DNA of 64,000 nt from Nitrospirota bacterium (GCA_963699545.1 CAVOUE010000005.1:384001-448000); one strand, 5' to 3'; shown: positions 7,319 to 34,321, numbered from the stretch's first letter. The notes: generated by a model not told the origin, from the sequence alone. Translations and numbers: made by a program.

Positions 7319-7339
7319 GGTTTGACGAACGGAGGATTT

Positions 7340-8083
7340 ATGACTGAAAAGATAGACGTTGAAGGAATTCAGGATGCCGTGCGCAAGAAGTATGCAGAGG
7401 TCTCAAGCACGGCTGAAGGTAAACTTAACTATCCCACAGGAAGGGATGGTGCAATCTTGCAGGGTTATGACCCCCAAGTCATTCAGAGTGTGCCAGATGA
7501 ATTGATACAGTCATTCTGTGGTGTGGGAAATCCCTTTATTCTGGGACCAATCAGTTCGGGAGAAACAATACTTGATGTGGGCTGCGGTGCGGGATTTGAC
7601 CTCATTGTTGCAAGTCGCATGGTTGGGCAAAATGGCAAGGTATGTGGCATTGACCTTACGCCGGAAATGGCCGACAAAGCAAGAAATAATCTAAAACAAT
7701 ATGGAGTTCAAAATTATGATGTTCGGGTAGCGGGAGCTGAGTCCATTCCGTATCCCGACAGCAGCTTTGATGCAGCAATCTCAAACGGAGTGTTGAACCT
7801 TTCACCCTTAAAAGAAAGGAGCTTCAGAGAGATATACCGGGTCCTCAGGCCGAATGGTCGCCTCCAGTTCGCAGATATCGTTCAAAAGGAAGACTGTGGT
7901 GCGATGTGCAGCACCCTTGAAGCATGGTCAAATTGAATTGCGGGCGCGATCTCAGTTGGAGATCTGATAGACCTGATGAAGGGCATAGGTTTTGTTAAGG
8001 TGGAATATGTGGGCGAGACAAAGGTGTCGACTTCGCAATTTACCGTGGGGGGCTTATTTAGGGCAGTCAAGGTGAACAGTTGA
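7340..8083 (+). CDS. ArsM/AS3MT-like SAM-dependent methyltransferase, probable selenoprotein (UGA at 7934-7936)
   Basis: GGAGG RBS before ATG 7340; SFCGVGNP, ILDVGCGAGFD, ISNGVLNL, VLRPNGRL motifs. The frame continues past TGA as WSN-U-IAGAISVGDLIDLMKGIGF...VNS* (48 more residues), matching the ArsM W-x-x-C-I-A-G-A motif. Confidence 0.85.
7948..7964 (+). promoter_or_regulatory. Candidate bacterial SECIS hairpin
   Basis: GATCTC-AGTTG-GAGATC: perfect 6-bp stem starting 11 nt after the UGA, with a GU in the loop. Confidence 0.7.
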
Positions 8084-9405: not shown

Positions 9406-9474
9406 TCTCTGCACGTGCTTGAAAATTCCTGTCCACACCTGTCAGAATAATTAGCTTATGCTTCGGAGAGTGCA

Positions 9475-10238
9475 ATGAACGCTAGGGCGCTGGTGAGTGA
9501 ACTTCAGGACTTCTATCTCCTTTCCTTTCGCGGCCTCATGGGGCTGCTGGGGAAACCCTTCTACCTGCGCGATACTATTGAACAGATGGACTATGCGGGT
9601 GCAGGTTCGTTCTTTATCATAATCCTCGTATCCCTCTTTGTGGGGATGGCCCTTTCCCTCCAGCTGGCAGCCGAGCTTTCGGTGCTCGGCCTGAAGATGT
9701 ATACCGGAAAGGTCGTGGGTATTTCGATCGTCCGTGAGATAGGCCCTGTTGCCGCGGCCCTTGTCTTTACCGGACGGGTCGGTTCAGGAATGGCGTCCGA
9801 GCTGGGATCCATGGTGCTCGGACATCAGGTGGATACGCTCAGGGTCTTCGGCGTTGACCCCGTAAAAAAGCTCGTCACCCCGAGGATAGTCAGCGCCCTT
9901 GTTATGCTGCCCGCGCTCACCCTTATTGGAGACGCCGCTTCCCTTATCGGGGGGTATTACATCGCGGTGTTCGTCAGCCACCAGAGCGGTAATGTCTACT
10001 GGAGCTCCATCAGGGAAGTTCTGAATTTTGAGAATGTCTTTCCGGCTCGGTGAAGCCTTTTATCTTCGGCTTTCTCATTTCATCCATCAGCTGTTACATG
10101 GGACTTTCCGCGAAGGGCGGCGCCATCGGTCTCAGGGGGGCGACTACGAGGGCGGTGGTGCTCTCCATCATCATGATCATCGTCGCCGATTTTATCCTCA
10201 CAAGGATATTGCTTTATGCCCTGGGGTTCAGCGTATGA
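9475..10238 (+). CDS. mlaE: MlaE-family ABC permease; apparent frameshift near 10040
   Basis: VREIGPV...GRVGSGMASELGSM. The C-terminus (KPFIFGFLIS...GATTRAVV) is in the adjacent frame; adding one T to the T-run restores it. Confidence 0.9.
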
Positions 10239-10984
10239 TCAGCTTTGACGGAGTCAGTTTCTCGTACGGTTCACGGTCCATCCTGAGTGACCTTCATTTC
10301 TCCATCGGGGCCGATGAAAGGGTGGCAGTGCTGGGAGGAAGCGGAGAAGGCAAAACGACCATTCTGAAACTTATTATGGGCCTCATTCGACCTGACTCGG
10401 GGAAAATATTCATAGACGGCGAAGATATCACCGGCAAGACGGAAAAAGGACTGCGGGACGTGCGGATGAAATTCAGCATCGTCTTCCAGGAAGGGGCCCT
10501 GTTCGATTCTCTGAATGTGAAAGAGAATGTGGCCTTCTGTCTCAGAGAATACACCAACATGTCGGATGAAGAGATCGACCGGAAGGTGCGGGACCTTCTC
10601 CGGAGGGTGGACGTCGAACAGGCAATGGAACTCATGCCCGAAGAGCTGAGCGGAGGGATGCACCGGAGGGTCGCTATCGCCCGGTCCCTGGCCGCTTTCG
10701 AACCGATGATGTTCCTTTACGACGAGCCGACAAGCGGCCTTGATCCGGTGAACGCCGACAACATATGCAAACTTATCCTCGACCTCTCCCGGAACGGAAA
10801 GGGTTTCATCATCGTCACCCACAAGGTCTTTGACGCGTTGAAGGTTGCCGGCAGGTTCCTGTTCCTGCAGGACGGGAAGATGCTCTTTGACGGGGACAGG
10901 GAACAGCTTCTCCATTCCCCCATTCCCGAGATTCAGACATTCATTAGCGAGTTGCAGCATAAAGAGGAGGGAAAACATGTTTGA
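10235..10984 (+). CDS. mlaF: MlaF-family ABC ATPase
   Basis: Walker A GGSGEGKT, VFQEGALFDSL, LSGGM, YDEPTSGLDP; ATGA overlap with mlaE. Confidence 0.92.
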   Translation: MISFDGVSFSYGSRSILSDLHFSIGADERVAVLGGSGEGKTTILKLIMGLIRPDSGKIFIDGEDITGKTEKGLRDVRMKFSIVFQEGALFDSLNVKENVAFCLREYTNMSDEEIDRKVRDLLRRVDVEQAMELMPEELSGGMHRRVAIARSLAAFEPMMFLYDEPTSGLDPVNADNICKLILDLSRNGKGFIIVTHKVFDALKVAGRFLFLQDGKMLFDGDREQLLHSPIPEIQTFISELQHKEEGKHV

Positions 10985-20312: not shown

Positions 20313-20387
20313 AGGCTCGTAGCTCAGGGGGAGAGCGCTTCCTTGACACGGAAGAGGTCGGCGGTTCGAAACCGCCCGGGCCTACCA
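20313..20387 (+). tRNA. tRNA-Val (GAC)
   Basis: Acceptor stem AGGCTCG/CGGGCCT, anticodon arm CTTCC-ttGACac-GGAAG, T arm GGCGG-TTCGAAA-CCGCC, encoded CCA. TTGACA lies at 20270-20275 upstream. Confidence 0.97.
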
Positions 20388-20395
20388 TTTAAGAT
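20341..20395 (+). repeat. attL core (3' part of tRNA-Val plus 8 bp)
   Basis: CCTTGACACGGAAGAGGTCGGCGGTTCGAAACCGCCCGGGCCTACCATTTAAGAT, identical to 30843-30897. Confidence 0.97.
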
Positions 20396-20402
20396 CAGGT
20401 AG

Positions 20403-21515
20403 TTAGGCATTTGCGACGGCCTCTTGTTTTTGAAAACTGTGAAGTAAATGTGAAGTGTGCACTTCGTTGACCTTTATCTCCGGTGCATTGTTGAGCACCT
20501 GATCAAGAACATTCACAGCATTCGCCAGGTGTGCCGGTGCCAGGTGTGAATACCGAAGAGTCATTTTGATATCTTTGTGACCCAGGAGTCTCGATACTGA
20601 GGTGAGGTCCACACCGGCCATGACAAGATGAGACGCGAAAGTATGCCGGAGATCGTGGAAGTGAAAGTCCTGAATCTTTGCCCTTCTCAATGCGCTGCCG
20701 AATGACCGTTTAACATCCTGGTAGGGTTTCCCGCTTGTCGGATCGTAAAAGACATAGGGAACATCAAGCCTTCTGGTGAGGCCCTGCAGCGTGCTCCTGA
20801 GAGTGGAATTAATCGGGATTTCCCGGCGCTCTCCGTTCTTCGTCTTGTCTAGGAGAATAAAACCATGCTTCAGATCAATGTGAGTATCCCATTTGAGTTT
20901 CAGAATCTCGCCCTTCCGCATGCCGGTGTTGAGCGCCGTTATTACAATCGGCCTCAAGTGCTGATCGCATGCGTTGATAAGATCCCTGCATTCCTCCTGG
21001 GAGAGATACCGGAGTCTCTTGTTTTCCGGGAGCATCTTCACCTTACGGATTTTCTTCAGAACGTCCGCCTCGACCATCTCCCATTCAACAGCCTTGGAAA
21101 ACATAGCCTTCAAGACATTCAGCGTCTTGTTATTGCTGGCACCTTTCAGGCCTCTGTTTATTGTGTCTGTCTGAAGTTGTTCAACAATGGCAGTGTTGAA
21201 TCTTCTAAGAGGGAGAGTTCCGAAGACATGCAATAATTGTCCGATGATATACCCCTTCACCCTCGCTGAATTCTGACGCCCGGCGATCCATGCCGTGTAT
21301 TTCTCTGCGAGTTCCGCAAAGGTGTGATTGCTGATCTTCTTGACCTCGGGTTCCTTTCCGTCCCGGATTGTTGCTCTCCTGCCATCAAGAAGCGTTGCGG
21401 CATCATCGTATTTCTTTTTTCCCGAGGACTCTCGCCGCATTCTTCCATCGAGGCCGACGTAGCATATCCAGTAAACAGAACCACGTCGATAAATTCCTTT
21501 ACCTCTTCTTGCCAC
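20403..21515 (-). CDS. Tyrosine recombinase / phage-type integrase
   Basis: TGMRKGEI (R), KTKN (K), FHDLRHTFAS (HxxR), LLGH, MTLRYSHL (Y): complete catalytic set. Confidence 0.97.
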   Translation of the reverse strand: MARRGKGIYRRGSVYWICYVGLDGRMRRESSGKKKYDDAATLLDGRRATIRDGKEPEVKKISNHTFAELAEKYTAWIAGRQNSARVKGYIIGQLLHVFGTLPLRRFNTAIVEQLQTDTINRGLKGASNNKTLNVLKAMFSKAVEWEMVEADVLKKIRKVKMLPENKRLRYLSQEECRDLINACDQHLRPIVITALNTGMRKGEILKLKWDTHIDLKHGFILLDKTKNGERREIPINSTLRSTLQGLTRRLDVPYVFYDPTSGKPYQDVKRSFGSALRRAKIQDFHFHDLRHTFASHLVMAGVDLTSVSRLLGHKDIKMTLRYSHLAPAHLANAVNVLDQVLNNAPEIKVNEVHTSHLLHSFQKQEAVANA

Positions 21516-21741
21516 TCTTCATCACCTTCCTTCCCGTTTTCATTTTCGTTCCCTTCTTCTTTCTGTCACCACCTTTCTTTACCTTCAGGCATTCAAGGGC
21601 GAGATGCAAGAAGGCCGGAACTTTTCTTTCCCCTGATTCCCATTGAGAGACACAGGGCCTTGTCACTCCCAGCAGTTTTGCGAGCTGCCCCTGGCTTAGG
21701 CCGTGGCGCTCTCTCCATACTGTCAGTTTCTTAGGTTCCAT
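21499..21741 (-). CDS. XRE-family HTH regulator
   Basis: RERHGLSQGQLAKLLGVTRPCVSQWESGERKVP; overlaps the integrase start. Confidence 0.9.
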   Translation of the reverse strand: MEPKKLTVWRERHGLSQGQLAKLLGVTRPCVSQWESGERKVPAFLHLALECLKVKKGGDRKKKGTKMKTGRKVMKSGKKR

Positions 21742-21747
21742 GTCACA

Positions 21748-21776
21748 ATGTTACCACAAAAGAAAGGCGTTGTCAA
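21748..21776 (-). promoter_or_regulatory. Sigma70-type promoter for xre-int, predicted leaderless transcript
   Basis: Minus strand TTGACA-17 bp-TAACAT with TGn extension; ATG follows 6 nt after the -10 box. Confidence 0.75.
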
Positions 21777-21789
21777 GCATTATTTTCAC

Positions 21790-21954
21790 GGGGTGGTCTG
21801 CAAGGGTCTGTGCGAAGTGGGACTGCTTGTGACTGATGCCGTTGGGAAGAGACGGTTTACTGCCTCTTTTGCCGTCCATACTTCCACCACGGGAAGTTTG
21901 CTCCTTTAATAACTCCCCCAGCTTCGCCTCGGCGTAAAGAAGTGCCTCACCCAT
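21790..21954 (-). pseudogene. Fragment resembling the N-terminal segment of phage-type DNA-methylase-associated proteins
   Basis: MGEALLYAEAKLGELLKE...SLPNGISHKQSHFAQTLADHP looks like a conserved phage protein segment but runs into the xre promoter with no catalytic domain. Confidence 0.35.
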
Positions 21955-22729
21955 GCGCTCTGGAACCGCTCTCTCGGTGCATGCTGTGGTATGGCTTCCC
22001 GTCAATCGTTCGCTCTCCGTCCATCCTGTCAAGGGCATTCTGTTACTTTTCATAAGAAATACTATTAACAACAAAAAAGAGAAGATAAAGAACGGTGGGT
22101 CTTCTCTCTTGGGTGCGTGTGGGTTCGTTCTGTTTGGTCTGTTGTGTATGTGTGCGCCCGTCGAGTCGAGGAGGTGCCTCTTGGTCGGGCGTCCGTGTCC
22201 GTAGCGGGTCTCTCTTTCCCGGGGGAGTGCGGTGCCGGTGTAGTGCGTCTCTGTCGAGGTGCGGAGATGTGGGACCGCTTCATGGTCTGGGCTTGGGTAT
22301 GGTCTACCCTTCGTCAATCGCTCCTCCTCTCTCTCTTGATGCCTGGACCTGTTCAAGGGGTGTAACGTGCCTCTTGCTCGCCAAAGGAAAGGATAAGACA
22401 GTCTCAGCGCCCTTTAGTAGTGTTTTGTTATTTGAGATCAGGGAGTAGGAGATACCATCCGGTCCCGATACCCGATGAAAATTGAACGGTTTCCTGATGT
22501 TACAGAAAACGTTACTTTTGGTAACATCTGTGCAACTGTTATTCATTAACTCTCCGATTTCTTTCGATCAAACATCAATAATCCTGTATATCAACAGGGA
22601 TCGTCCGCTTATGGTATAGAGCGTCTGATGAGGTAGACGGTCGAGGTAGACGGTTGTTGACTTCACTCTTTGGTTCACAGTTCAAATAAACCTCTTTATT
22701 TTCCATGCCTTTAAAGCCTGTCACTACCC

Positions 22730-23044
22730 TTATACGGTAGTGCTCACCCTACCCTTACGGGTGGGTTCTCCTACTCCCGGCGTCCAGTGCTTCTTTGTCC
22801 AAGCGTCGATCTCTGACTTCCTGAAGCGAAGCTGCTTATTCCCGAGCTTGAAGAAGGGGATCGTCTTCAGGTGTGTTTGCTCATAGATCCACTTATGCTC
22901 TACCTTCAGGTATCCAGACAGGCCCGGAACATCAAAGACAATATCCTCCTGGCGGTGCCCGTTGCCTGGAAGTAAGGGCTTCAGGAGTTCAAGGACCTTC
23001 TCGGCTATGGCCTCAACGTCCTGCGGTTCAAGTTCGGTTCTCAT
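22730..23044 (-). CDS. Excisionase/AlpA-like DNA-binding protein
   Basis: FDVPGLSGYLKVEHKWIY...IPFFKLGNKQLRFRKSEIDAW. Confidence 0.88.
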   Translation of the reverse strand: MRTELEPQDVEAIAEKVLELLKPLLPGNGHRQEDIVFDVPGLSGYLKVEHKWIYEQTHLKTIPFFKLGNKQLRFRKSEIDAWTKKHWTPGVGEPTRKGRVSTTV

Positions 23045-23185
23045 GCCGTCTCTGTCACGGAGCGCAGCCTCCCCCCCCCCCGTATGACCCTGAAGGCCCC
23101 GGCCCTCCTTTTTCTGGCCGTCGACCTCCTGAAAAAGAGATGATACCTATATCGAGATATTTACTGGCGTGCTGGCAAATCTTCC

Positions 23186-24316
23186 TCATTTTTTTTGCAT
23201 CCCTTCCAGCAGTTTAAATGCTCTTTTATAAGACTTCGCTGGATCTATTTTCGGCATAATGCCCGTATCGACAAATCGCTTCAGTTCTAACGAGACGCGA
23301 GTAAATACTTCATCCCAGTTACCATGGCTACCTTGTCGAAAAATCCGCATAGAATCATAAAAACAGGTATCTTCAAAACCAGGTGTCCATATCCAGTCCC
23401 AAATATGCTCAAACGGCAATAATGTCCAAACGGGAACCCCTAATGCACCTGCAAAATGTACTACATTGTTGTCTATGGCAATGATCAGATCAAGGCACGC
23501 TATCTGTGCAGCAAAACTTTCAAAGTCTTTAAGTGAGTCAGCAGGATCGGGCCAGTCATGAACGGTAACGCCGAAGTTGTCTTTGACCTCATTCAATTCA
23601 TCGGGGCGTGCTCCATATTGAAGATTCAACCAATGCACTCCCTGGATGGAAAACAATTTCCCCCACTGACCCAACTCCGTAGATTGCAACCTCCAAATTT
23701 CCCGCATCGGTACCTTGCGCCATGCGATACCAATTTTCAGCCCTTTACCGAGTGACTGAAGACGCTCGCGCCATACCTCGACTCTTTGAACGTCCGGGAT
23801 AAGGTGGCGTGGCGGCCACGGGAAGACATGGATATAAGCCATTCGTAAAAATACGAGATCATAGAACGAGAGAGACAGAATATTGCGAACCTGCCCGGAA
23901 TAATTCGGGTAGAGCGGGGAAGAAAGGAGCTCACATATTCCATCATTATTATTTCCCACTATAAGCAGTTCGGGATATGAACGTTTTAAAAGCCCTATGA
24001 TCCGATTATCATCAACAATGACAACACACAAATTATTTTCTGCGATTAAGGGAATAACGGGGAACCCCAGGATCGTGTCTCCTATTCCGATTTTATAGAC
24101 TGACTTCTTTAAAATGACGAAGACAATTCTATCCTTGATCTTCTCACCGCTTTTTAATGAGTGTATTACTTCAGGGGAAACATATTGTTCTATAAAAGAA
24201 TCAGAGGGACCCTTTATTACTTTATTGAGCCACTCAGCGCCTTTCGCTAATACATCCAGGAAGCTCTCGTTTCCAGGGTTATTCATGATCGAATGCTGTT
24301 TAATAAGCTTCTTCAT
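23186..24316 (-). CDS. GT-B (GT9-like) glycosyltransferase without TPR repeats
   Basis: GIGDTI, RIIGLLKRSYP, KIGIAW, NLQYG, AAQIACLDLIIAIDNNVVHFAGALGVPVWTLLP, FYDSMRIFRQ...GNWDEV. Confidence 0.8.
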   Translation of the reverse strand: MKKLIKQHSIMNNPGNESFLDVLAKGAEWLNKVIKGPSDSFIEQYVSPEVIHSLKSGEKIKDRIVFVILKKSVYKIGIGDTILGFPVIPLIAENNLCVVIVDDNRIIGLLKRSYPELLIVGNNNDGICELLSSPLYPNYSGQVRNILSLSFYDLVFLRMAYIHVFPWPPRHLIPDVQRVEVWRERLQSLGKGLKIGIAWRKVPMREIWRLQSTELGQWGKLFSIQGVHWLNLQYGARPDELNEVKDNFGVTVHDWPDPADSLKDFESFAAQIACLDLIIAIDNNVVHFAGALGVPVWTLLPFEHIWDWIWTPGFEDTCFYDSMRIFRQGSHGNWDEVFTRVSLELKRFVDTGIMPKIDPAKSYKRAFKLLEGMQKK

Positions 24317-24644
24317 ACATTCTCCGCATCTTCACACCCGGACTGTTGAAATGGAAAATGCTATAGTCGCAGCCGCGCCAGAATCGAGTCTGGAAGTATT
24401 TGTCGATAAGCAGGATCATGGTGTCGGCGTCGAAGTCGTGGCTGACAGTGAAATGATCATCAGCACAAAAAAGGGTCCGGCAGAGTCTTGACCAGGTTTC
24501 CGGTCTCGCCTTCCGGTATTCGGGGAGTGCGTACCCTTTACGCTTTTGCAAGAAGTACCGGATAACCTCATCGGCTTCCTCATCGACTTCATACTCTTCA
24601 GAAAATTCTTCGTAAGAGAGAGGGTCTTTCTTTTCAGTAGTCAT
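24300..24644 (-). CDS. Hypothetical protein, possibly the C-terminal domain of a phage-type replication initiator
   Basis: 114-aa ORF directly after the rep-like ORF; tail LIDKYFQTRFWRGCDYSIFHF. Confidence 0.55.
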   Translation of the reverse strand: MTTEKKDPLSYEEFSEEYEVDEEADEVIRYFLQKRKGYALPEYRKARPETWSRLCRTLFCADDHFTVSHDFDADTMILLIDKYFQTRFWRGCDYSIFHFNSPGVKMRRMYEEAY

Positions 24645-24714
24645 TTTTCACCCTTTAAAAAAAGAGACGCGAATTTTTCGTAAGGAAAATTCCCTTGTAG
24701 TTTTTCTTCTTCTT

Positions 24715-24801
24715 CTTAAGCTTAACCTTCATCTTAACCTTCTACTTAACCTTAACCTTCACGCCGTCCTTGTCCCGGAGTACTCCTGGACTTGTCCGGG
24801 A
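24715..24801. repeat. Iteron-like repeat cluster (putative origin)
   Basis: CTTAACCTTC at 24721, 24733 and 24751, plus CTTAAC and CTTAAG. CTTGTCC(C/G)GGA at 24769 and 24791 (22-bp spacing). GGAGTACTCC palindrome at 24777-24786. Confidence 0.65.
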
Positions 24802-25141
24802 ATGAGGGGAAAAGATCATCCCCGAGGCGGTCTTCTCTCAAAACTTGATGTCTTTTCCAATTCAGAGAGTGGAGGTATTCAACCCCGTCCACGGTGAACC
24901 ATTTAACAGAGGTTTCCTTTGAAATCTCATCCAGACATTTCTTGATTGTGGAAATATCGAGCCAGGCAATAAGCGGACAGCATTCGCCCTTAATGAAAAA
25001 AGGAGAGCCGTTCATTTTCCCGTGGGAGTTGAAGTGTGGGATAATCAGACAGAAAAGGGAAAGAGCTTTCGGGGAGAGGGCCGCGACTCCGTGAGAGCGA
25101 GCAATTGATTTTCTGATCATCCTGCCAGGTTCAGTTTTCAT
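24752..25141 (-). CDS. Phage-type replication initiator / replisome organiser N-terminal domain
   Basis: GRMIRKSI.S..VAALS...LF..IIPH...G, WFTVDGVEYL...NW.RHQ pattern typical of phage initiator wHTH domains. Confidence 0.65.
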   Translation of the reverse strand: MKTEPGRMIRKSIARSHGVAALSPKALSLFCLIIPHFNSHGKMNGSPFFIKGECCPLIAWLDISTIKKCLDEISKETSVKWFTVDGVEYLHSLNWKRHQVLREDRLGDDLFPSFPDKSRSTPGQGRREG

Positions 25142-25369
25142 CTATTCCCCTCACCTTTCCGCTTTCTTGCCCATAGCGTCATTTTATAAGTACCCCGGAG
25201 TCCCAAAGGGGACCATTTTGTTGTTCACCCCACGATCCGTCAATAAGCTCGCCTTTACTGACTGTGGCTCCCCTTTTCCTTGCTGCTCCTTTTGCTTGGC
25301 GGCATGGAGGTGCTGAGGAGGTGACAGGACTCCGGGATACACCCTATTTTCCTATTAGTGCACATCCCT

Positions 25370-26479
25370 TTATTTCATGCTGTAGTCGGTGAATGCCTTG
25401 AGTTCTTCGGCGCGTCTTCTCAGTGCCTCGCCTTTCAGCTTGTCGAAATCCCGGACAAAGTTCCGATTATTTAAAATCCACATCCTCAAAAGTTCCTGAC
25501 TGACTTCAGTGCCACGCGTGGTCAAAACCTTAAAGAATTCATTCGCAAGGCCATCGAAAAGTGTCAGTCGCTCAGGGTCAGTGATATCAGCACCCTCACT
25601 TCCTAAAGCCCGGATCTCTGTCAGGTCTGACACGAGTTGATCCCTCGCCTCACGATTCTTCTCCGAGTTGTGAAATGACATTACGATTTTCTTGATGGAC
25701 TGAGGGAGGTGAGAAACTTTACTGAGACCCCTGTCAGAGAACAGTCCTGAGAAAACATCCTTGGCATAGTGCGGTAACACCTGCTTAAAAATGAAGTCAA
25801 AGGATTCTTCAACAGCTTCATATTCCAGGGACCTGGAAAGACAACACATAATCGGCGCGACCCGCCTAAGACCGTTGCAAATAAAAAAGACCCATGCGTC
25901 TGCGCCTCGGGGTTCCACGGCTTTTTCCCGGAGAACTTTGAGCTTATCGTCGTCAACAAGCCCATCAATTGCCCTCCGGATTTCGAGAAGCCGAAGAATA
26001 CAATCGTCAGCACCACTCACATCACTTGCGCTGATGGCCTCGCTAAATTTGCCGATGCCTTTTAGATATGCAACAACCCCGATCACCCCCACGCCGCAAT
26101 AGATGGTAGGAAAAATGACCGCGAAGTCTTCAGGAAAACTCTTCTGGAACTCCTTAAATCGTCCATACGCACTAAACAGCTCCCCCTTTAACGTATGTTC
26201 GTTTATGGGCCGGTAACGCCCCTTTAACTCCGAGACCTGGTTAGGGAACGATACATAAGCCTGGGCAGTCAAGGAAGAGTTGTAGCCCGATTCCAGCTCA
26301 AGAACGACCGCATCGACAATCTGCATGTCCTGGTTGAAACTCGCTTCGTCGTGGAGATACTGATAATTGTTGTTCAGCGCAGCACAGCGCCCCAAGAATA
26401 AAAATTTTGCGTCGTAGAGTGCCACAACGCCCCTGGTATTTTTGCCGAAACCGTATACATCCCTTTCGATACTATCCAT
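25370..26479 (-). CDS. Hypothetical protein (369 aa)
   Basis: Long ORF, AAGGAG RBS, 6 bp after the upstream ORF; no motif recognised. Confidence 0.75.
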   Translation of the reverse strand: MDSIERDVYGFGKNTRGVVALYDAKFLFLGRCAALNNNYQYLHDEASFNQDMQIVDAVVLELESGYNSSLTAQAYVSFPNQVSELKGRYRPINEHTLKGELFSAYGRFKEFQKSFPEDFAVIFPTIYCGVGVIGVVAYLKGIGKFSEAISASDVSGADDCILRLLEIRRAIDGLVDDDKLKVLREKAVEPRGADAWVFFICNGLRRVAPIMCCLSRSLEYEAVEESFDFIFKQVLPHYAKDVFSGLFSDRGLSKVSHLPQSIKKIVMSFHNSEKNREARDQLVSDLTEIRALGSEGADITDPERLTLFDGLANEFFKVLTTRGTEVSQELLRMWILNNRNFVRDFDKLKGEALRRRAEELKAFTDYSMK

Positions 26480-26485
26480 TTTGTT

Positions 26486-26740
26486 TTACTCCTTTGGCAT
26501 TTGCATCAACACAGTGTGCATACGCCTTTTCAAATTTTTCATTTTGTCCACAAAGGTCCTGACATTGACCTCAGCCCCACCGTCAAACCTTCTTTTCGCC
26601 GCAGCGAATCGCTCATTTATTTCAAAGGTAAATACAGCCTTGCCGTTGGTGATGATGATTTCAGCAGGTTCATCGAGGTCCAGTTCAAAATACGAGGCTT
26701 CCGGGATCGAGAGAGTCGAGTAAATCTTTGGAATGGTCAT
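26486..26740 (-). CDS. DUF5659-like small protein
   Basis: 84 aa, YSTLSI.EASY...GKAVFTFE...VNVRTFVDKMKNLK pattern; GGAGGTG RBS. Confidence 0.6.
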   Translation of the reverse strand: MTIPKIYSTLSIPEASYFELDLDEPAEIIITNGKAVFTFEINERFAAAKRRFDGGAEVNVRTFVDKMKNLKRRMHTVLMQMPKE

Positions 26741-26822
26741 TGTTTCACCTCCTCTTCTTTCGTCTTCTTGTTTCTTTTTTTTGGCTACCCATCAGTTACA
26801 GATAGCGCAACTCAAAACAAAC

Positions 26823-27188
26823 TTACAAGTTAAACTTTTTCGCGCGCTCGGCTGCGTGGTCCCGGAGTGCCTGATTCCTTTTTTCTGTCTCTTCGTCAAT
26901 GTGCCTAAGAGACTCTTTTACTTCAGCGTCGATGCGTGCCTCCATCTGAGGTGAAAGCTTTCGAGGTCCGAAAATCGATTTGTATTTACGGTCGGTTTCG
27001 AGATCTGCGAATAGTCTTTTTCGGTCTTCACTTGGAAAGACTTTGTGTAATCGGTCCTTCTGGTCTTCATCCAGGCCAACTTTTCCGTTTTCAAACAACG
27101 AAAGGGTCGCCGCATTAATACCAGTGAGGTTTTGCAGGTCCATCAGAGTCAGTCTTTTTGCGGTTCTTAAAATTTTGAGTATCTTCAT
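26823..27188 (-). CDS. XRE/Cro-like HTH protein
   Basis: LKILRTAKRLTLMDLQNLTGINAATLSLFENG; AAGGAG RBS. Confidence 0.85.
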   Translation of the reverse strand: MKILKILRTAKRLTLMDLQNLTGINAATLSLFENGKVGLDEDQKDRLHKVFPSEDRKRLFADLETDRKYKSIFGPRKLSPQMEARIDAEVKESLRHIDEETEKRNQALRDHAAERAKKFNL

Positions 27189-27309
27189 TTTCGGCTCCTT
27201 GCGTGGCAATTGCTATTAATTATTTATATTAAATCTGATAAACGGGAGAATTGCGAAGTAACGCGCGCAGGTATCCGTTACTTGAATTGTCTTACTGTGT
27301 CAGCAGGGC

Positions 27310-28254
27310 TTACTTTTGGGTTTTCTGAGAGGACTTGCGTGCTGGTAGGAATTCGCTTAGATTGCGTATCGTTCGGGTTTTCTTTATAAGATCGAAAGCC
27401 TTATTAATTTGGTTGGTAATTAAACATTCTTTCTCTTCCCAATAATCATGCCAGGATTTACCATCTTTCCTCGGAGGTGCTTTCTCAAACTGTTTAAAAA
27501 TCTCGTCAAGGATCATGATAATAATTTTTCTCTTTCCTTTGAAGCCCTCCCTTTCGATCTCCTTGTATCTATCATATAATTTGAAATCGAGTTCTATAAT
27601 TTCGAACATCTCTTTGTCCGGGATAAGAGTATCCGCTGAAGTTCTCTTATCAAGAAACATTTCTCCCTTTAAAGTGGGGTTCTTTATGAAAAATCTCTTC
27701 TTCTCAATTTCAACGATTCTTTCTATCTCGTCACGTAAAATCTCCTTGGGCAAGGCTGGGTGATAACTGATATGTGCGGGCAGAGAAGGATCATAATAAG
27801 ATTTGATCAACCTGTTTTCTACTCTCTCGTATGTTTTCACAAGAGAATTATTTCCTAACAACTGCTTTGCCGCATACCGATTTTTTTTGTTTTTGTCATT
27901 GGCTTTTATCGCCTCATTCAGGTCTTTCCATTCAGCATCACTTAATGAATCCTTCGTTGGTTCCTGCGAGGAAGTTAAAATTGCATATTGACTCACCCTC
28001 TTTGTAATACTTCCAAAACGATCTTCATGTTGCTTTACAGTCCACCTTTCTCCTTTTATCAAACACGGCAATAAGGCATCTTTGTCTCTCAATTTCGCGT
28101 AATCCTCTCGGCGCTTTAGAGCCATAACAAACCAATAATGCGCTATATCATGAGGTGCCAAAATATGGCTCCATGAAGGAAAAGAACCTTTTTCGATGCT
28201 CTTGATATATTTCTGAATGGGGGTATCCAAGAGGGGTTCTTTTTTTTGTTTCAT
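27310..28254 (-). CDS. Hypothetical protein (314 aa, AT-rich, Lys-rich)
   Basis: Long ORF in the element; no confident motif. Confidence 0.75.
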   Translation of the reverse strand: MKQKKEPLLDTPIQKYIKSIEKGSFPSWSHILAPHDIAHYWFVMALKRREDYAKLRDKDALLPCLIKGERWTVKQHEDRFGSITKRVSQYAILTSSQEPTKDSLSDAEWKDLNEAIKANDKNKKNRYAAKQLLGNNSLVKTYERVENRLIKSYYDPSLPAHISYHPALPKEILRDEIERIVEIEKKRFFIKNPTLKGEMFLDKRTSADTLIPDKEMFEIIELDFKLYDRYKEIEREGFKGKRKIIIMILDEIFKQFEKAPPRKDGKSWHDYWEEKECLITNQINKAFDLIKKTRTIRNLSEFLPARKSSQKTQK

Positions 28255-28302
28255 CTGTCTCGTAGTGTTCTCCTTATTGCTGTTTTTTATTAAAACAACA
28301 TT

Positions 28303-28548
28303 CTAATACCAGGAATAACCTTTGCCCTGCATACAATAAGCTTCGCTATCTACCTGATCCATTAATCTCCTTGCTGCCATAGACTGCGCCTTGCATTGAT
28401 TCAGGTCTTGCCAGACTTCCTGCTGTGTTTTATTGGGATGATGCCAGCCTTGCCCTGTCCAGTACGTCGCACTTCCCCCCTGGATTGCCGGACCACAGGA
28501 TGAAAGAAGTACAGATAAACATACGCATGTAATTGTAATACGTTTCAT
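28303..28548 (-). CDS. Small lipoprotein
   Basis: AAGGAGG RBS; MKRITITCVCLSVLLSS-C lipobox; W..P..TQQ...D...C and CMQGKGY Cys pair. Confidence 0.8.
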   Translation of the reverse strand: MKRITITCVCLSVLLSSCGPAIQGGSATYWTGQGWHHPNKTQQEVWQDLNQCKAQSMAARRLMDQVDSEAYCMQGKGYSWY

Positions 28549-28625
28549 TTTATCCCCTCCTTGAGTCTCCGTGGTCATTTCCACCTGCTCAAAATATACT
28601 CCTGTCCCCCTGCAAAATCAAGGCA

Positions 28626-28651
28626 GGAGCCCCAGGTTTCCCCGAGGCCCC
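28626..28651 (-). terminator. GC-rich hairpin with GAAA tetraloop (terminator-like; weak U-tract)
   Basis: Minus strand GGGGCCTCGGG-GAAA-CCTGGGGCTCC. Confidence 0.5.
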
Positions 28652-28850
28652 TTACTTCCGTTCAGTTCTCCCTTTGATCCACCGGAACGAAAGACGGCAT
28701 TCTGTCATACTGATTTTCCAGCACGGAAATCCTGATGTCCGCAATTCCGTATTCAAACGCCATGATCCCGGTGGTATCTATCCTCAAAGAGATCGTGTGA
28801 TAACCGAGATCATGCAGAGCCTGCTCCGGGAGTTCTCCGAGGACACAGTG

Positions 28851-29663
28851 CTATCCTTTTTCTTTTTCACGCTCGGCCCTTCGTGCTGCTTGAACATATT
28901 GTTGGCCCCCGCGCGACGACTCTGGAGATCCCACAATTCCACCGCCGCACAGGGATGGCGCTTTCACGTCTTCCTTCCTGGTGGCTACGTACTCATCGAG
29001 TTTCTGCTTGAGGTTCGGCTTTTCGAGGAAGATATCCCGGACAAGATCACAAGGGTCAAAGGCTTCCACCTGGATTAAGAGAGCATCCCGAATGGATACA
29101 GGGTCTTTCTCCGGGTTTGCGTCCAGCTCTTCAATGAAACGCGTTATGGTCTGTCGAATCTGCTTCTTAAATTCCTCTCTCACTTTTGCCTGAGACTCCA
29201 AAAAACCCCCTTTGATCTCATTGAGCAGTGCCACCATAAGCTCTTTGCCTTCCTCTGCTTCTTGTTCCATCTTCTTCTCACTGCTCTCCATGAGGAGCTT
29301 GTAGAGGGTCATGCGGGCCTGAGATTTAGGGGGGAGCGTTGAGAGCATTTGTCGCCCGTATGTCTTAAGAAAATCAAGCTCCTTCTCTGGCGTCATATTG
29401 GCATTGACGAAATTCTCAAAGTCCATTTCCCCCGGAGCGGTGACAGGCGGCGCGGTAAGCGACTCCTTGTCCGCAGTGTTTATTTTTCTGTTGATCGCGG
29501 GCCGTGAGACGCCCAGGACCACACTTATGTTGCCGTCTGACCATCCCAAGAACGTTTTCAGCCCCCTGAGAAATTCCCGTGGAATGTGTGCTATTGTCCC
29601 GGACGGCTTCACGCCTTTCGCCAGTTCTTTCCACAAGTCGCTCCTGATCCTGCTTTCTTTCAC
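28851..29663 (-). CDS. Hypothetical protein with N-terminal HTH and coiled coil
   Basis: LRGLKTFLGWSDGNISVVLGVSRPAINRKI; GTGA overlap with the upstream ORF. Confidence 0.75.
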   Translation of the reverse strand: MKESRIRSDLWKELAKGVKPSGTIAHIPREFLRGLKTFLGWSDGNISVVLGVSRPAINRKINTADKESLTAPPVTAPGEMDFENFVNANMTPEKELDFLKTYGRQMLSTLPPKSQARMTLYKLLMESSEKKMEQEAEEGKELMVALLNEIKGGFLESQAKVREEFKKQIRQTITRFIEELDANPEKDPVSIRDALLIQVEAFDPCDLVRDIFLEKPNLKQKLDEYVATRKEDVKAPSLCGGGIVGSPESSRGGQQYVQAARRAEREKEKG

Positions 29664-29908
29664 TGGCGTTCCCCCCGTTCTTTCAATCTTTCTTTCACCG
29701 CTTCCGCAAAATACCGCTTAGCCTTCTCCCTGTCACCCATTGCGCAATAAGCGAATAGCAAAGCTGTGATGTACCCGTGCTCGCCTTTTTCCTCTAATGC
29801 CTTTCTACGCCTCGAACTTTCATCGGGATCCATCCGGTGGCTCATCTCCTCACACGCAAGTGTCCAAAACCCTTCACTTGGGCCTTCTACGTCTGTAATT
29901 TCGTTCAA
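29660..29908 (-). CDS. Hypothetical protein (82 aa)
   Basis: TTG start after AAGGAG; stop overlaps the next start. Confidence 0.65.
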   Translation of the reverse strand: MNEITDVEGPSEGFWTLACEEMSHRMDPDESSRRRKALEEKGEHGYITALLFAYCAMGDREKAKRYFAEAVKERLKERGERQ

Positions 29909-29977
29909 AACCGTTCTCCTTTCTGAGCTACAACTGATGTCCGCCTACGGAATAGTTGTATCCGCTTGCGATCTCTA

Positions 29978-30313
29978 TCACGTTGTCTTCGTTTTATAGC
30001 CACCTACCTGCCTCGCTGCTGTGTTGAGATAGGGTTCCAACTTTTCAATGGCTCTCTGGATCGCCTTATCCCATTCAAAACCGTTATACGGGCTTTCATA
30101 GGCCACCACACACAGCTCTTTGAGGATATTTCGGATATCCTCTGCCGGCAAAGGCCCGGTTTCCCCCGGAATAGGGTCACTGTGGGGGCCTGGGGGCTTC
30201 TCAGAAGCGATCTCCCCGGGACAGGTAACATCTGTCGAGCCACAATGCAGACAGGCCGTGGAGCGTTCTGACTGGAAATCAGTGTCACAGTCTGTGCAGT
30301 GCCAGGTCTTCAT
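29978..30313 (-). CDS. Hypothetical protein with N-terminal zinc ribbon
   Basis: CTDC...CLHCGS; GGAGGG RBS; 2 bp after the upstream stop. Confidence 0.7.
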   Translation of the reverse strand: MKTWHCTDCDTDFQSERSTACLHCGSTDVTCPGEIASEKPPGPHSDPIPGETGPLPAEDIRNILKELCVVAYESPYNGFEWDKAIQRAIEKLEPYLNTAARQVGGYKTKTT

Positions 30314-30315
30314 GA

Positions 30316-30666
30316 TTAATCACACCCTCCGAAAGAAAGGCCAAAGGCTCCCTTCAGGAGTGTACACACCTCGCTGACGGCAAGTTGGACTCCATTGAAA
30401 TCATATCCCTCAAGAGAGCCTTCCTTGTCCTCATCGTTTAAAACCGTCCTTACCGTGGTCAGACGGATCAAGGACTCTTGAATCAAAGTCTCTATCCGGC
30501 TTTTAGTATTCAGGTCATCCCTTGATGTCAAGAATCCCCCTACGGATTCCAGTTCACCGCAAACCATCATGCCGATCTTATCCAACCCGCACTTCTCGAC
30601 AACCTCACGGCATACTTTTAAATCCTCATTCTCCGCCTTCTTTTCTACTGCCTTCAAATTTGCCAT
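30316..30666 (-). CDS. Hypothetical protein (116 aa)
   Basis: AGGAGG RBS before ATG 30666 (MANLKAVEKK...). Confidence 0.7.
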   Translation of the reverse strand: MANLKAVEKKAENEDLKVCREVVEKCGLDKIGMMVCGELESVGGFLTSRDDLNTKSRIETLIQESLIRLTTVRTVLNDEDKEGSLEGYDFNGVQLAVSEVCTLLKGAFGLSFGGCD

Positions 30667-30842
30667 GTTAAGCCTCCTTTTTTTGTTGACTGTGAAGTTG
30701 TTGTGAAGTAAACATAGGGGTAAACCTTTCCGTGAGCGAGTGTTGAAATTCCTCAGATTGTGGTAAATTGGGAAAGTCTTGAAATAGAAAGAAAAAGAAA
30801 TAGAGGGAACTATACGGAAAAGGTTGACCCCATCTCGCAGCA

Positions 30843-30897
30843 CCTTGACACGGAAGAGGTCGGCGGTTCGAAACCGCCCGGGCCTACCATTTAAGAT
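30843..30897 (+). repeat. attR core (duplicated tRNA-Val 3' end)
   Basis: Exact 55-bp copy of 20341-20395. Confidence 0.97.
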
Positions 30898-31236: not shown

Positions 31237-34200
31237 GTGGAAATCCCTATTATAGAAAAAGATTCTGAACTGAAATTCCCTCATTTTACTGTGCTGAAGG
31301 CGTCCGCAGGCTCAGGCAAGACCCACATGCTCACCAAGAGATTCGTACAGTTCATTCTTTCTGAAAAAATATCGAAGAACAGACTGCGGAATATTCTTGC
31401 AATAACCTTCTCGAACAATGCCGCCAAGGAAATGAGGGAGAAGATCATCGAGTGGCTCAAATTGCTTCATTTCGGCGATCCGGAAAAAACTGAACAAATG
31501 CTTGAGGCGGTCTCGATGGACCGGGAGAAACTGGCGGAGCGGGCCGGCCAGATGGTGGAGGAGATACTCTGGAATTACGCTGATTTTGAGGTGAGGACCA
31601 TAGACAGCTTCATGACATCGATCTTCAAGACTTCCGCCATCGACTTTGGATTCAATACTGAGTTCGATATCCTTATGAACAATGATGCGCTCATGGAATA
31701 CTCTTTTGATTTGTTCTTGAGGGGCGTCCGGGAGGGCACGCAAGAGACAGAACTCCTTCTCAGTATAGTCTCAGCGATCCAGGAAGGGAAACAGGGCCAG
31801 GAAGCCTATATGTGGGACCCGTCATCAGCACTCCTTGAAGAAGTGAAAAGCCTCTACGGAAAACTCTCGGCAACCGGCAAGAACCCTATGATAGAGGACT
31901 ACTCAGGAGCCTTTGACGATATAAAAAATGAGATAAGAACTGCCATCGACGGCCTTGAAAAAGTGGTCCTCAAGTCAGGGCTCGGAAAACGGGCAAACTC
32001 TTCTTTCAGAGGCGGTCCTCGATCTCGTGAGGGAGGGAAGGTTCGCGGACCTGATCGGAAAAGGGCTTAAGAACCCACCTGTCAATAAGCCGGGGAAAGG
32101 CCAATCAGCCCTTCAGACCTCATTCGATCAGATTGTCGGACAGTGGGAGAACGCCTGCAGTCTTATCAACAAATACATTGCCCTCCGCGTCCGGTCCCGT
32201 TCCATGCCGTATCTCAAGGTATATGAATCTTTCAGAGAAATCGTCGAATCCGTCAAGAGACGTCAGGGCAAGGTATTCATCGAAGACATAAGCAGAAATC
32301 TTGCCGAATACCTTAACGAGGAAATCGTCCCGGACATCTATTTCAGGATCGGAGAGACAATCTACCACTTCCTGATCGACGAATTCCAGGACACTTCCCT
32401 CATTCAATGGCACAACCTTTTCCCCCTTTTCGAGAACGCTCTGTCTCAGGGTGGAAGCCTCTTCGTCGTAGGCGACACCAAACAGGCAATCTACGGCTTC
32501 CGCAACGCCGACTACACGATCATGAGAGAGTCCGAGCGCACCAACCCCTTCCCTTCCGCCAGGCATTACGTAAAGGAACTTACGACAAGTCGCAGAAGCC
32601 TCAAGAAGATCCTTGACTTCAATGAGAAGGTATTCAAGGAGATCGTGGCGGGAAATGACAAATACAAGGAGGCAGGGACCAGAAGCGGGCTGACCGACTA
32701 CGTCCAATGCGCCAGAGATGGCAGCTCCCAGGGATACTGCGAAGTGGTGCTGCAGGAAAGGGATGACGAAACCCCTCCAGAGCGGCGCGTCATACAGGAC
32801 CTTGTCGCAGAACTTAGATCGCGAGGGTTCAGCTATGGCGACATAGCCATACTGACCCGGAGAAATGAAGACGTCGTAAAGACCACCCTTTGGCTGAACG
32901 AGAAGAACATCGACTTCATTTCTTACAGCAACCTCGACATACGGAGAAGGAAGATAACCGGCGAGATAGTCGCGCTTCTGAACTTCCTTGATTCGCCCAT
33001 GGATGACCTCTCTTTTTCTACCTTCATAAACGGAGAGATCTTCGGCGCCTTGCTGCGTACGGACCATCCTGAGATCACTCCGGAGAGACTCGGGGAGTTC
33101 CTCTTTGGATATAGAGAGAGCCCTCCACTCTACAAGTCCTTCCAGAAAGAGTTCTCTCTTCTATGGGAGAAATACTTCGCCGGCCTTTTCAAGGCCTCAG
33201 GATATTTCCCGATCTACGACCTTGTGACAGAGGCTTACGCTGTCTTCAGGGTCTTTGAGACACTGGGGGACGAGGAGGCAGCACTTGTGAAGATCCTCGA
33301 AGCGGTCAAGGAGTTCGAGGGGGCCGGATACAACAGCATCAGGGACTTCCTTGACTTCGCAGGCGACAGCGACAGCGGCGAGTCAGAGTGGAATATGGAC
33401 GTCCCCAAGACCCTGGACGCTGTCAAAGTGATGACGATTCACAAGGCAAAGGGCCTCGGATTCCCCGCAGTCATTGTCCTTCTCTATGAAGGCCGGAACA
33501 GGGGGTTTGACTACATCATAGAGGAGGAAGAAGATGGGGTGCGGCTGCTCAAGATCAACAAGAAGACCATGGTCAGCGATCCCACTTTCGAGAGGCTCTA
33601 TGAAGAGGAAGCGACAAAGGAAAATGTGAACAGGCTCAATAGCCTGTACGTCGGATTCACGCGGGCAAAAGAAGAGCTCTACGTAATCGGCGTAAAGGGC
33701 AGAAGCGAGACATTTCCGTTCGATCTCCTTCCCGCAAGCGACTTTGCAGCCACGGTAAAACCTGACAGATGTGACATTCCTGCCGCAAAATCTTCTGAGG
33801 TCTTCAGTGTAAGACATCACCCTAAGCAGATAGAGGCAGAGGTCAGAACGGACGAGATGATCAGCGTCGGAGAGAGAGCGAGGGGAGAATTCATCCACAG
33901 GGTTCTTTACCACGTCGAATATCTGCACGATGACATGGAAAGCGTGCTTGAGGACATCATCAGAAGAGTCACTTCCGAAACAGCATCAGAGTCAGCCGCA
34001 GAGGGAGTAAAAAAGCTTCTTCTTCGCCTCTTCGGACGCAAGGAGATAGCGACCTACTTCGAACCCCGTCCCGGGAGAGAGGTGAAAAGGGAGCAGGAAT
34101 TCTCGGATGAAGAGGGACATCTCTTCAGGATGGACAGAGTCGTGATCGACCCGGACAGGGTTACGATCTTGGATTTCAAGACCGGGGGAGAAGGTTGGGC

Positions 34201-34321
34201 TGATGAGAAATACAGGGCACAAATGAGAAAATATATGAAGATCGCGAAGGACATTTATCCCGGTAGACGCCTGGAAGGCAGGATCGTTTATATAGACCTC
34301 GGAGAGATCAGGACATTATGA
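31237..34321 (+). CDS. AddA-like UvrD helicase-nuclease; apparent frameshift near 32008
   Basis: ASAGSGKT, AITFSNNAAKEM, LIDEFQDTS, VGDTKQAIYGFR, MTIHKAKGL, YVGFTRAK and C-terminal RMDRV...ILDFKTG nuclease motif, across two ORFs. Confidence 0.9.

Follow-up and report, generated by a model that had tools for sequence, protein, structure and literature searches.

What kind of element is a 10.5-kb island that sits in a valine tRNA gene, carries an intact integrase, has all its credible genes on one strand and contains no recognizable gene for packaging or conjugation? The island lies at 20341 to 30897 of a 64,000-nucleotide stretch of DNA from a Nitrospirota bacterium (GCA_963699545.1, CAVOUE010000005.1:384001-448000); we call this whole stretch the window and count positions from its first letter. 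The original prediction, made from the sequence alone, had read the island as either a helper-dependent satellite or an undescribed class of replicating integrative element, with its orphan genes as candidates for helper hijacking or defence. We find that the mobile island in the valine tRNA gene is real and that its coordinates are correct. On its gene content, it is best read as part of a modular pool of small elements that target tRNA genes in bacteria of the Nitrospirota/Thermodesulfovibrionia type, and not as a new class; we put at roughly 55% the probability of a diverged or partly eroded pool member that is unable to spread alone. Because no packaging or transfer gene was found, one gene is a fragment and about 0.7 kb is noncoding, the island is predicted to have no autonomous transfer: it can probably still excise and integrate and, as far as its genes tell, cannot move between cells by itself.

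Boundaries and recombination module

The integration target is tRNA-Val(GAC) (20313 to 20387, plus strand), an intact gene at the attL side and the sole tRNA in the window according to ARAGORN, with which Rfam agrees (RF00005, 63.8 bits); tRNA is also the only Rfam family accepted, a BjrC68 match having been rejected at 18.7 bits against a cutoff of 39. The attachment (att) cores form an exact direct repeat (D1) of 55 nt, as had been predicted: attL (20341 to 20395) consists of the 3' 47 nt of the tRNA gene and 8 nt beyond, and attR (30843 to 30897) is 100% identical to it. Elements that integrate at the 3' end of a tRNA gene usually leave such a repeat of the tRNA end. The cores are spaced 10,502 nt start to start and enclose 10,447 bp, so that an excised circle, which would retain one 55-bp core, would measure 10,502 bp. 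The base composition of the island is foreign, its GC content being 47.3% against 52.4% in the remaining window, and none of 66 equal-sized windows outside the island falls below 50.3%. Synteny of the window flanks revealed no empty attB site among the 79 related loci described below.

Just inside each att core lies one copy of a 38-nt imperfect direct repeat (D4, 79%; 20419 to 20456 and 30672 to 30709), the left copy overlapping the final integrase codons. Within each copy there are two TGTGAAGT motifs on the plus strand, with 11-nt spacing; one pair lies at 20438 to 20456, 43 to 61 nt inside attL, and the second, with the same 11-nt spacing, at 30691 to 30709, 134 to 152 nt inside attR. All four copies of TGTGAAGT in the window sit in these two pairs, one pair per att end. 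The copy number alone is weak, since four copies were reached in 8 of 100 shuffles, and it is the paired placement, not the count, that leads us to regard the pairs as candidate arm-type integrase sites.

The tyrosine integrase (370 aa; 20403 to 21515, minus strand) is the last gene of the array and is transcribed outward to the tRNA. It matches PF00589 (E 3.8e-33) and phrog_1 (E 1e-67) and carries the motifs TGMRKGE at 197, HDLRHT at 287, GHKD at 312 and LRYSH at 320, which we take to be the catalytic R / H-x-x-R / H / Y set. The reading as a bounded integrative element is supported. The start of the integrase gene is overlapped by 17 nt by an XRE-type helix-turn-helix (HTH) regulator of 80 aa (21499 to 21741, minus strand; HTH_3 E 5.1e-9), so the two genes probably form one operon, and the best promoter-like site for the regulator in a consensus scan (minus strand, 21776 to 21748) has 10 of 12 matches and a TG. 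A second XRE-like HTH protein (128 aa; 26823 to 27209, minus strand) is weak, with HTH_31 at E 1e-3, HTH_60 at E 2e-3 and all matches under the Pfam gathering cutoffs; of the two XRE regulators proposed, therefore, the first holds and the second is marginal. The predicted excisionase-like gene is also present. Its 104-aa product (22730 to 23044, minus strand) is an HTH_17 protein of excisionase/AlpA-like type that passes the PF12728 cutoff (E 8.1e-7, 29.6 bits against 27), matches phrog_66 and falls just short of the cutoff for TIGR01764 "excise" (E 3.5e-6, 27.3 bits against 28.8); it has no match to PF05930 (Phage_AlpA), which some of its relatives do match. We infer that it may act as a recombination directionality factor or activator.

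We analyzed 18 open reading frames (ORFs) of the island by profile scans against Pfam, PHROGs, NCBIfam and PADLOC. The credible ones all lie on the minus strand, as foreseen, so that transcription runs from attR to the tRNA, and they are closely packed, with gaps of -17, -4, 2 and 6 nt and 79% of the island coding. No capsid, portal, terminase, primase, helicase, relaxase, type IV secretion system (T4SS) or defence protein was found in the island ORFs with these four collections, in keeping with the original prediction, which was borne out as well in that the island has no divergent repressor pair. None of the 18 ORFs has a Walker A or HUH motif. Nothing links the orphans to hijacking or defence, since PADLOC returned generic HTH matches only. 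Comparison with 50,697 phage and 72,556 plasmid records gave no DNA similarity for 22700 to 30690, and no DNA or protein match except for the N-terminal domain of a replication initiator. A terminator-like hairpin (28625 to 28652, minus strand; 12 pairs, 8 of them G-C), followed by a promoter-like site at 28621 to 28593 from a consensus scan only, suggests that the one-strand array is divided into at least two transcription units.

Relatives of the island and its replication-type genes

To place the island we used 79 loci from an integrase scan, with one genome per species, and searched them by tblastn with the 18 island ORFs. Nearly all are labelled as coming from uncultivated Nitrospirota, Nitrospiraceae or Thermodesulfovibrionia, and the best integrase identity is 73%, so that the genome from which the window comes is absent from the set. 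The integrase was matched in 79 of the 79, the HTH_17 protein in 26, directly upstream of the integrase, and the 80-aa XRE regulator in 12 (61% identity in L009); tRNA-Val adjoins 11 of the 16 loci with an integrase identity of at least 63%. Some ORFs were matched in a single locus only: a 114-aa protein in L040, a gene fragment and a zinc-ribbon protein in L009, and the spurious N terminus of an ORF across attR in L073.

Twelve relatives are bounded by a repeat of the tRNA end and measure 4.0 to 10.9 kb (L001, 9.3 kb; L003, 9.7; L013, 9.5; L014, 7.1; L015, 7.9; L030, 10.4; L033, 10.9; L040, 4.0; L049, 8.6; L054, 7.7; L058, 10.8; L064, 7.3). Apart from L054, they account for 11 of the 33 loci that have 9 kb or more of upstream sequence; the remaining 22 of the 33 may be larger or may have diverged repeats. 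Pfam scans of 194 ORFs from 20 loci (89 from nine bounded elements and 105 from eleven further loci) revealed a recurring order of cargo, a small DUF5659-like ORF, a primase/helicase, a small HTH protein, the HTH_17 protein, sometimes an XRE regulator, the integrase and the tRNA, and found no capsid, portal, large terminase or tail gene in any of the 194. The primase/helicase is present in 7 of the 12 bounded elements (L001, L003, L013, L014, L033, L054 and L064) and in L004; none was recognized in L030. It takes the form of CHC2 and/or Toprim with AAA_25 (L013, L004, L054 and L064), AAA_25 alone (L001), DUF3987 (L014, and with Toprim in L003) or a DnaB-like protein (L033). Other replication genes are an HTH_36 plus DnaD_N Rep in L049 and a lambda-O-like protein with a DnaC-like loader in L009. 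Four of six small HTH proteins of the relatives match phrog_2538, "terminase small subunit" (best E 1.9e-11), one further protein matches phrog_641 and phrog_51, and that of L064 reaches the Pfam cutoff for Terminase_2. The cargo includes GmrSD and an XcyI-like endonuclease with a methylase (L030), a methylase with a ResIII helicase (L058), MazF (L013), Gp49 with an HTH protein (L014) and AbiE (L020).

This plan recalls that of phage-inducible chromosomal islands (PICIs), for which five core functions and a median size of 9.5 kb are given in PMC10085698. By their predicted genes, the integrases nearest to that of the window serve small islands with four of those five functions. L003, L013, L030, L054 and L064 (and L001, L004 and L014) have a PICI-like layout in islands of 7 to 10 kb with restriction-modification or toxin-antitoxin cargo. 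Some loci are of interest in themselves. L004 contains two integrase genes of the same family 6 kb apart (2729 to 3844 and 9255 to 10277), each with an HTH_17 gene ahead, one following an HTH_36/Phg_2220_C Rep and the other a primase-helicase, which looks like tandem islands. In L011, three IS3-type transposase pairs (HTH_Tnp_1 plus rve) lie upstream of the integrase module (3407 to 5538 and 6778 to 7982); since these copies interrupt the region, that island appears to be being broken up by insertion sequences.

The pool genes common to the window island are the recombination module and a small DUF5659-like gene only. The latter encodes 84 aa (26486 to 26740, minus strand; PF18903 E 6.7e-4, below cutoff), and phmmer matched it to ORFs in L004 (E 3.9e-6), L001 (3.2e-4), L064 (1.4e-3), L011 (1.5e-3) and L013 (0.011); pairwise BLASTP with the L030 and L011 copies gave no significant alignment, and a literature search gave no mention of DUF5659. 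In four of the relatives, this ORF runs up to or into the start of the primase/helicase gene (L004:5425-5703, L001:4981-5274, L064:6181-6534 and L013:5930-6211). The two thus form a conserved gene pair in the relatives, and the partner in the window is an orphan of 369 aa (25370 to 26479, minus strand) that lies 6 nt downstream of the DUF5659-like ORF; because the primase/helicase adjoins this ORF in the relatives and the orphan does so here, the orphan occupies the replicase slot. It has one hydrophobic segment (about residues 118 to 140), no P-loop, no usable Atlas match and no PDB or family match. Among 5.8e9 clustered proteins it found only itself, and an exhaustive HMMER search of 1.8e9 representatives added two weak partial matches, to a 1,044-aa tandem-repeat protein and a 147-aa protein. 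Structure models by AlphaFold2 without an alignment were made of two orphans, and that of the 369-aa protein has a mean pLDDT (predicted local distance difference test) of 35.4, from which no fold conclusion was drawn.

Downstream of the 369-aa orphan lies an initiator-like ORF of 129 aa (24752 to 25141, minus strand), which resembles the N-terminal (DNA-binding) half of a phage DnaD-type replication initiator. It matches positions 13 to 101 of the 302-position profile phrog_1408, "replication initiation protein" (E 1.3e-6), as well as nine phage records by tblastn, and in BLASTP it aligns at 28% identity (E 1e-12) to residues 5 to 128 of a "DnaD domain protein" of 260 aa from Paenibacillus phage Mock2. 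In Mock2, the DnaD-type gene (gp56) is followed by a DnaC-like gene (gp57); in the island, neither a C-terminal DnaD domain nor a helicase-loader gene follows the 129-aa ORF. The best PDB match of this ORF, to repeat regions of a large toxin chain (E 0.066), was treated as a chance match. Four AAGGTTAAG repeats (24721 to 24759) overlap the initiator-like stop codon and are followed by a 64-bp spacer of 69% A+T; the whole (24645 to 24761, minus strand) is a putative origin, which we infer from the repeat cluster and the AT-rich spacer. The cluster, read on the minus strand, holds four of the five copies of this 9-mer in the whole window, and five copies were reached in 0 of 100 shuffles. Repeats of 9 nt are shorter than typical iterons. 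The rep-like ORF with iterons that had been proposed therefore stands as regards the phrog_1408 match and the four 9-mer repeats, but represents only the N-terminal half of its family.

Beyond the spacer, a 114-aa protein (24300 to 24644, minus strand) with its own start and a Shine-Dalgarno-like GGGTGA is possibly a second initiator part. It has no Pfam, PHROG, phage or plasmid match (tblastn for phages and plasmids), and its sole relative among the 79 loci is in L040 (38% identity, tblastn E 1.2e-15), where the 114-aa-type ORF follows, in a different frame, an ORF for an O-like initiator N-domain (phrog_9773, E 8.5e-17). The 129-aa and 114-aa ORFs could together encode an initiator in two pieces, or the gene could have broken at its linker in both the window island and L040. 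Reading the repeat region as a frameshifted linker that unites the two rep-like ORFs would require at least three events and was not adopted. Pairwise BLASTP gave no significant alignment of either ORF with the L049 Rep, of the initiator-like ORF with the L040 N-domain ORF, or of the 114-aa ORF with the Mock2 DnaD protein. In L040 itself, the O-like initiator extends over three overlapping ORFs in two frames (8482 to 9336), the first and third in the same frame, which suggests a rep gene of about 285 aa with two frameshifts or assembly errors.

Cargo, erosion and competing accounts

The recognizable cargo consists of two genes whose products had been named correctly. One encodes a glycosyltransferase domain protein of 376 aa (23186 to 24316, minus strand) that is barely visible to Pfam (GT9, E 0.048) and is confirmed by 326 homologs at E<=1e-3; among the matches listed, query coverage is 43 to 84%, most are proteins of 500 to 650 aa with TPR Pfam domains ahead of the matching domain, and some are named "TPR repeat-containing glycosyltransferase family protein." The TPR part is absent from the island copy, which looks like captured cellular cargo. 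The other is a predicted lipoprotein of 93 aa (28303 to 28584, minus strand) with a hydrophobic N terminus and the lipobox LSSC at 27 to 30. The remaining genes, all on the minus strand, are orphans or nearly so: a lysine-rich protein of 314 aa (27310 to 28254), encoded in the kilobase of lowest GC content (39%), which found only itself in the 5.8e9-protein search and had no family or PDB match; an 82-aa orphan (29660 to 29908), whose stop codon overlaps the start of a 270-aa ORF by 4 nt; a zinc-ribbon-like protein of 111 aa (29978 to 30313) with two CxxC pairs (CTDC at 6 and CLHC at 21), weakly similar to a 169-aa ORF beside the xis-like gene of L009 (tblastn E 1.8e-4); and a 116-aa orphan (30316 to 30666), the first gene after attR, with its start set at an internal ATG. 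A longer ORF of 210 aa that spans attR (to 30948) was rejected: it crosses the att core, its first 94 residues are spurious with the likely start at 30666, and its "relatives" are only translations of the tRNA/att region in other loci.

Outside the island, one flank carries the housekeeping genes ffh and trmD and those for RNase HII and thioredoxins, and the other an AddA-type helicase-nuclease and, farther out, Phe and Thr tRNA synthetases. The AddA-type UvrD helicase / PD-(D/E)XK nuclease gene beyond attR is split into two overlapping plus-strand ORFs (31237 to 32070 and 31955 to 34321), with Pfam UvrD-helicase positions 17 to 112 in the first and 159 to 268 in the second, through a frameshift or an assembly error. 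Also in the host chromosome, two paralogous HMGL-like / LeuA-dimer synthase genes of the 2-isopropylmalate or citramalate/homocitrate synthase type lie 6 kb apart on the minus strand (47390 to 48637 and 54315 to 55892).

The 270-aa orphan (28851 to 29663, minus strand), a protein that has a long helical region and probably an HTH at its N terminus, is where the proposal of a functional helper-dependent phage satellite meets the data. Under that proposal, infection or induction by a helper phage would cause excision by way of the HTH_17/XRE switch, the initiator would fire the repeat origin, and the 270-aa protein would be a candidate small-terminase analogue that diverts helper capsids. A protein-language-model search does place the protein nearest to Atlas clusters of small-terminase-type HTH (Terminase_5 / Phage_terminase), but its score of 0.80 is one that shuffled proteins reach one-third of the time. 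It has no Pfam, PHROG, phage (tblastn) or PDB match, and no window ORF has a PHROG or Pfam terminase match; an alignment of the relatives' small-terminase-like proteins gave hhalign probabilities of at most 0.6% against five window proteins, and a PDB sequence search with four window proteins gave nothing significant. The AlphaFold2 model of the 270-aa protein, again without an alignment, has a mean pLDDT of 52.7, and Foldseek against the PDB returned 0 of 405 matches at E<=0.001, so no fold conclusion was drawn for it either. The island itself has exact att cores, an intact integrase and a size of 10.5 kb close to the PICI median; of the five PICI core functions (core list in PMC10085698), four occur in the relatives with the nearest integrases, small-terminase-like genes among them, and marine virion-borne elements are described as often capsid-less, some of them without a known replication gene (PMC9618062). 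Against these features stand the lack of a primase, helicase or Walker A motif among the island ORFs and of a prophage in the 64-kb window, and we regard the satellite proposal as unlikely, if less so than the accounts that follow.

Signs of internal erosion are present: a gene fragment, a gap of 676 bp and an initiator without its C-terminal domain. The fragment (21751 to 22053, minus strand) contains residues 132 to 188 of a 201-aa ORF (21751 to 22356); similarity (48% identity, tblastn E 2.4e-10) is confined to these 57 residues and to the middle of an ORF of 265 aa in L009, and the part of the ORF upstream of them is aberrant in composition. The 676 bp at 22054 to 22729 (minus strand) contain no credible gene, only ORFs of 80 and 49 aa with no family match and no relative, and have no Rfam family and no stable RNA fold (z-score -0.73); this is probably decayed sequence. 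The same features, together with the glycosyltransferase that lacks the TPR part of most homologs and the failure to find a self-transfer gene, could be taken to mean that the island, after a single integration, has become immobile and is decaying, its ORFs kept only by chance or as domesticated cargo. What makes this doubtful are the 100% identity of the 55-nt cores, an integrase of full length that retains its motifs, the dense packing of long ORFs (79% coding) and a base composition that shows no drift toward the host's. A small size is moreover normal for the pool, so no large deletion is required; the original prediction had named descent by deletion from a larger prophage or integrative and conjugative element (ICE) as the outcome that would speak against it, and the relatives, being equally small, do not support that form of loss, yet the island does bear the internal signs described above.

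No more probable than the remnant account is a working satellite or satellite-like replicon in which the 369-aa orphan and the 270-aa HTH protein, the latter as a packaging specificity factor, displace the primase/helicase and small terminase of the relatives, with a two-piece DnaD-type initiator acting on the 9-mer origin. If true, such a satellite with displaced functions would represent a new family whose hijacking proteins are novel, and no satellite report was found for its phylum. We consider highly improbable a new self-replicating integrative element (a plasmid-like replicon) or a small non-tailed virus with the orphans as its replication or structural proteins, which the initiator-like protein, the clustered repeats, the AT-rich tract, seven to eight ORFs without a detectable family, the hydrophobic segment of the 369-aa orphan and the lipoprotein might suggest, as signatures of partition, copy control, a relaxase, a packaging ATPase or a capsid are absent from the island, as are P-loop proteins, its initiator is missing the domain with which phage homologs recruit the helicase loader, its only match in the phage and plasmid records is the initiator N-domain, and the models of the 369-aa and 270-aa proteins are too poor for a capsid-fold test.

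Several observations weigh against our own placement of the island as a diverged or partly eroded pool member. Eleven of the 18 window ORFs are unmatched in all 79 loci, and the link to the PICI-like relatives consists of the recombination module and one small gene below threshold. Integrase modules get exchanged between unrelated elements. More distant integrases (51 to 54% identity) occur in conjugative elements, with a TrwC relaxase and TrwB in L023 and T4SS genes in L034; the integrase family therefore serves several element types. The exact 55-nt cores and the tightly packed, overlapping ORFs speak against much decay. Two diverged elements, the window island and L040, both have an initiator N-domain ORF and a 114-aa-type ORF in another frame, and this shared layout could be a regular two-protein initiator and not a broken gene. 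The orphans could also be working replication or packaging genes that are invisible to profiles.

For a diverged or partly eroded pool member, we propose the following mechanism. The integrase and the HTH_17 protein would excise the 10,502-bp circle and re-insert it at tRNA-Val, the integrase perhaps being bound at the paired TGTGAAGT sites near both ends, and the XRE proteins would set the switch. The core of the relatives would have been replaced or eroded in this copy, the 369-aa orphan taking the replicase slot. The initiator-like protein may bind the 9-mer cluster, and the origin could act through host or helper factors. Any transfer from cell to cell would require a carrier from outside the island, for which a helper phage is the most plausible candidate by analogy with the terminase-like genes of the relatives. 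The glycosyltransferase, the lipoprotein and the orphans would be carried as cargo.

The window island alone is an ordinary integrative island with many orphan genes, and the pool of its relatives is the more useful finding: tRNA islands of 4 to 11 kb with a PICI-like plan, in a phylum for which our literature search found no satellite report. Should these relatives be satellites, they would imply helper phages yet to be discovered, as well as a route for the exchange of defence genes in this group. The window island shows that divergence is possible while only the recombination module is kept.

Comparison with known element classes

The claim of an undescribed class is not supported, as small tRNA-integrated islands that have an integrase and an excisionase and no other hallmark have already been described; about half of the tRNA-associated elements in a preprint on tycheposons are termed "cryptic" there, having only these two genes (10.1101/2020.12.28.424599). 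By its own sequence the island corresponds to a generic tyrosine-recombinase island at a tRNA, with the integrase adjoining the tRNA and the 3' end of the tRNA repeated at its far boundary. It does not resemble a prophage, as no capsid, portal, terminase, tail or lysis gene was found in the island and its sole phage match is the initiator N-domain. Nor does it resemble an ICE or an integrative and mobilizable element, for no relaxase, coupling protein, T4SS family, P-loop or HUH motif was found in it, an origin of transfer being beyond the reach of sequence. From P4-like satellites, for which seven core components are listed (PMC10085698), it has only the integrase and an AlpA-type HTH protein, with no psu-delta-sid operon, epsilon or alpha primase in Pfam, PHROGs or NCBIfam. 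The capsid, portal, head-tail adaptor/connector and large terminase that capsid-forming PICIs have of their own were not found in the island.

The replication-type genes compare best with lambda-O / DnaD-type modules such as gp56 and the DnaC-like gp57 of Mock2: the 129-aa ORF is similar to the N-terminal 124 residues, and repeats lie at the end of the region that codes for this domain. The island differs in lacking the C-terminal DnaD domain and the helicase-loader gene, and its repeats are 9-mers. With VEIMEs (virion-encapsidated integrative mobile elements), which occur as concatemers inside virus particles and often lack capsid genes (PMC9618062), it shares a small size, an integrase, the absence of a capsid and many genes without homologs; AlpA, excisionase and small-terminase homologs are described as common in VEIMEs, and the replication genes of some are plasmid-like or not recognizable. 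That class is defined by particle DNA, whereas the window island is described here from its sequence.

With PICIs of the Gram-negative type, as SatelliteFinder models them (PMC10085698), the island shares its size of about 10 kb, site-specific insertion by a tyrosine integrase, an HTH protein of putative AlpA/excisionase type, a one-directional array, cargo, and the absence of tail and lysis genes; none of the components forbidden in PICIs (tail, holin, portal and head-tail connector) was detected in it with Pfam or PHROGs. Its nearest integrase relatives also have the primase/helicase and small-terminase-like genes. The window island has two of the five core functions if the 104-aa protein, with its HTH_17 match, is counted beside the integrase as a putative regulator (an alpA, merR or stl homolog). 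As to the other three, no primase, Toprim, AAA_25, DUF3987 or DnaB match was found in the 18 ORFs, only the initiator N-domain; no head or packaging family for capsid morphogenesis was found in any island ORF with Pfam or PHROGs; and for the small terminase there is only the Atlas lead for the 270-aa protein, with no Pfam or PHROG match. Its integrase, furthermore, is last in the array and faces outward to the tRNA.

That orientation also separates the island from the tycheposons, which are described as having their own integrase lineage, a hallmark gene set and an inward-facing integrase (10.1101/2020.12.28.424599); that of the window runs from 21515 to 20403 on the minus strand and faces outward, so that direction and description set the two apart. 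As presented in that preprint, tycheposons too are small and target tRNA genes; a tyrosine recombinase and an excisionase are accompanied in them by variable cargo and, in some, by a small replication module, and their PICI-like and cargo-carrying forms share a recombination module. Our literature search found no phage-satellite report for Nitrospirota and no description of an island for Thermodesulfovibrio. By the features tested a member of neither class, the island works most like a PICI of the Gram-negative type or a tycheposon-like island.

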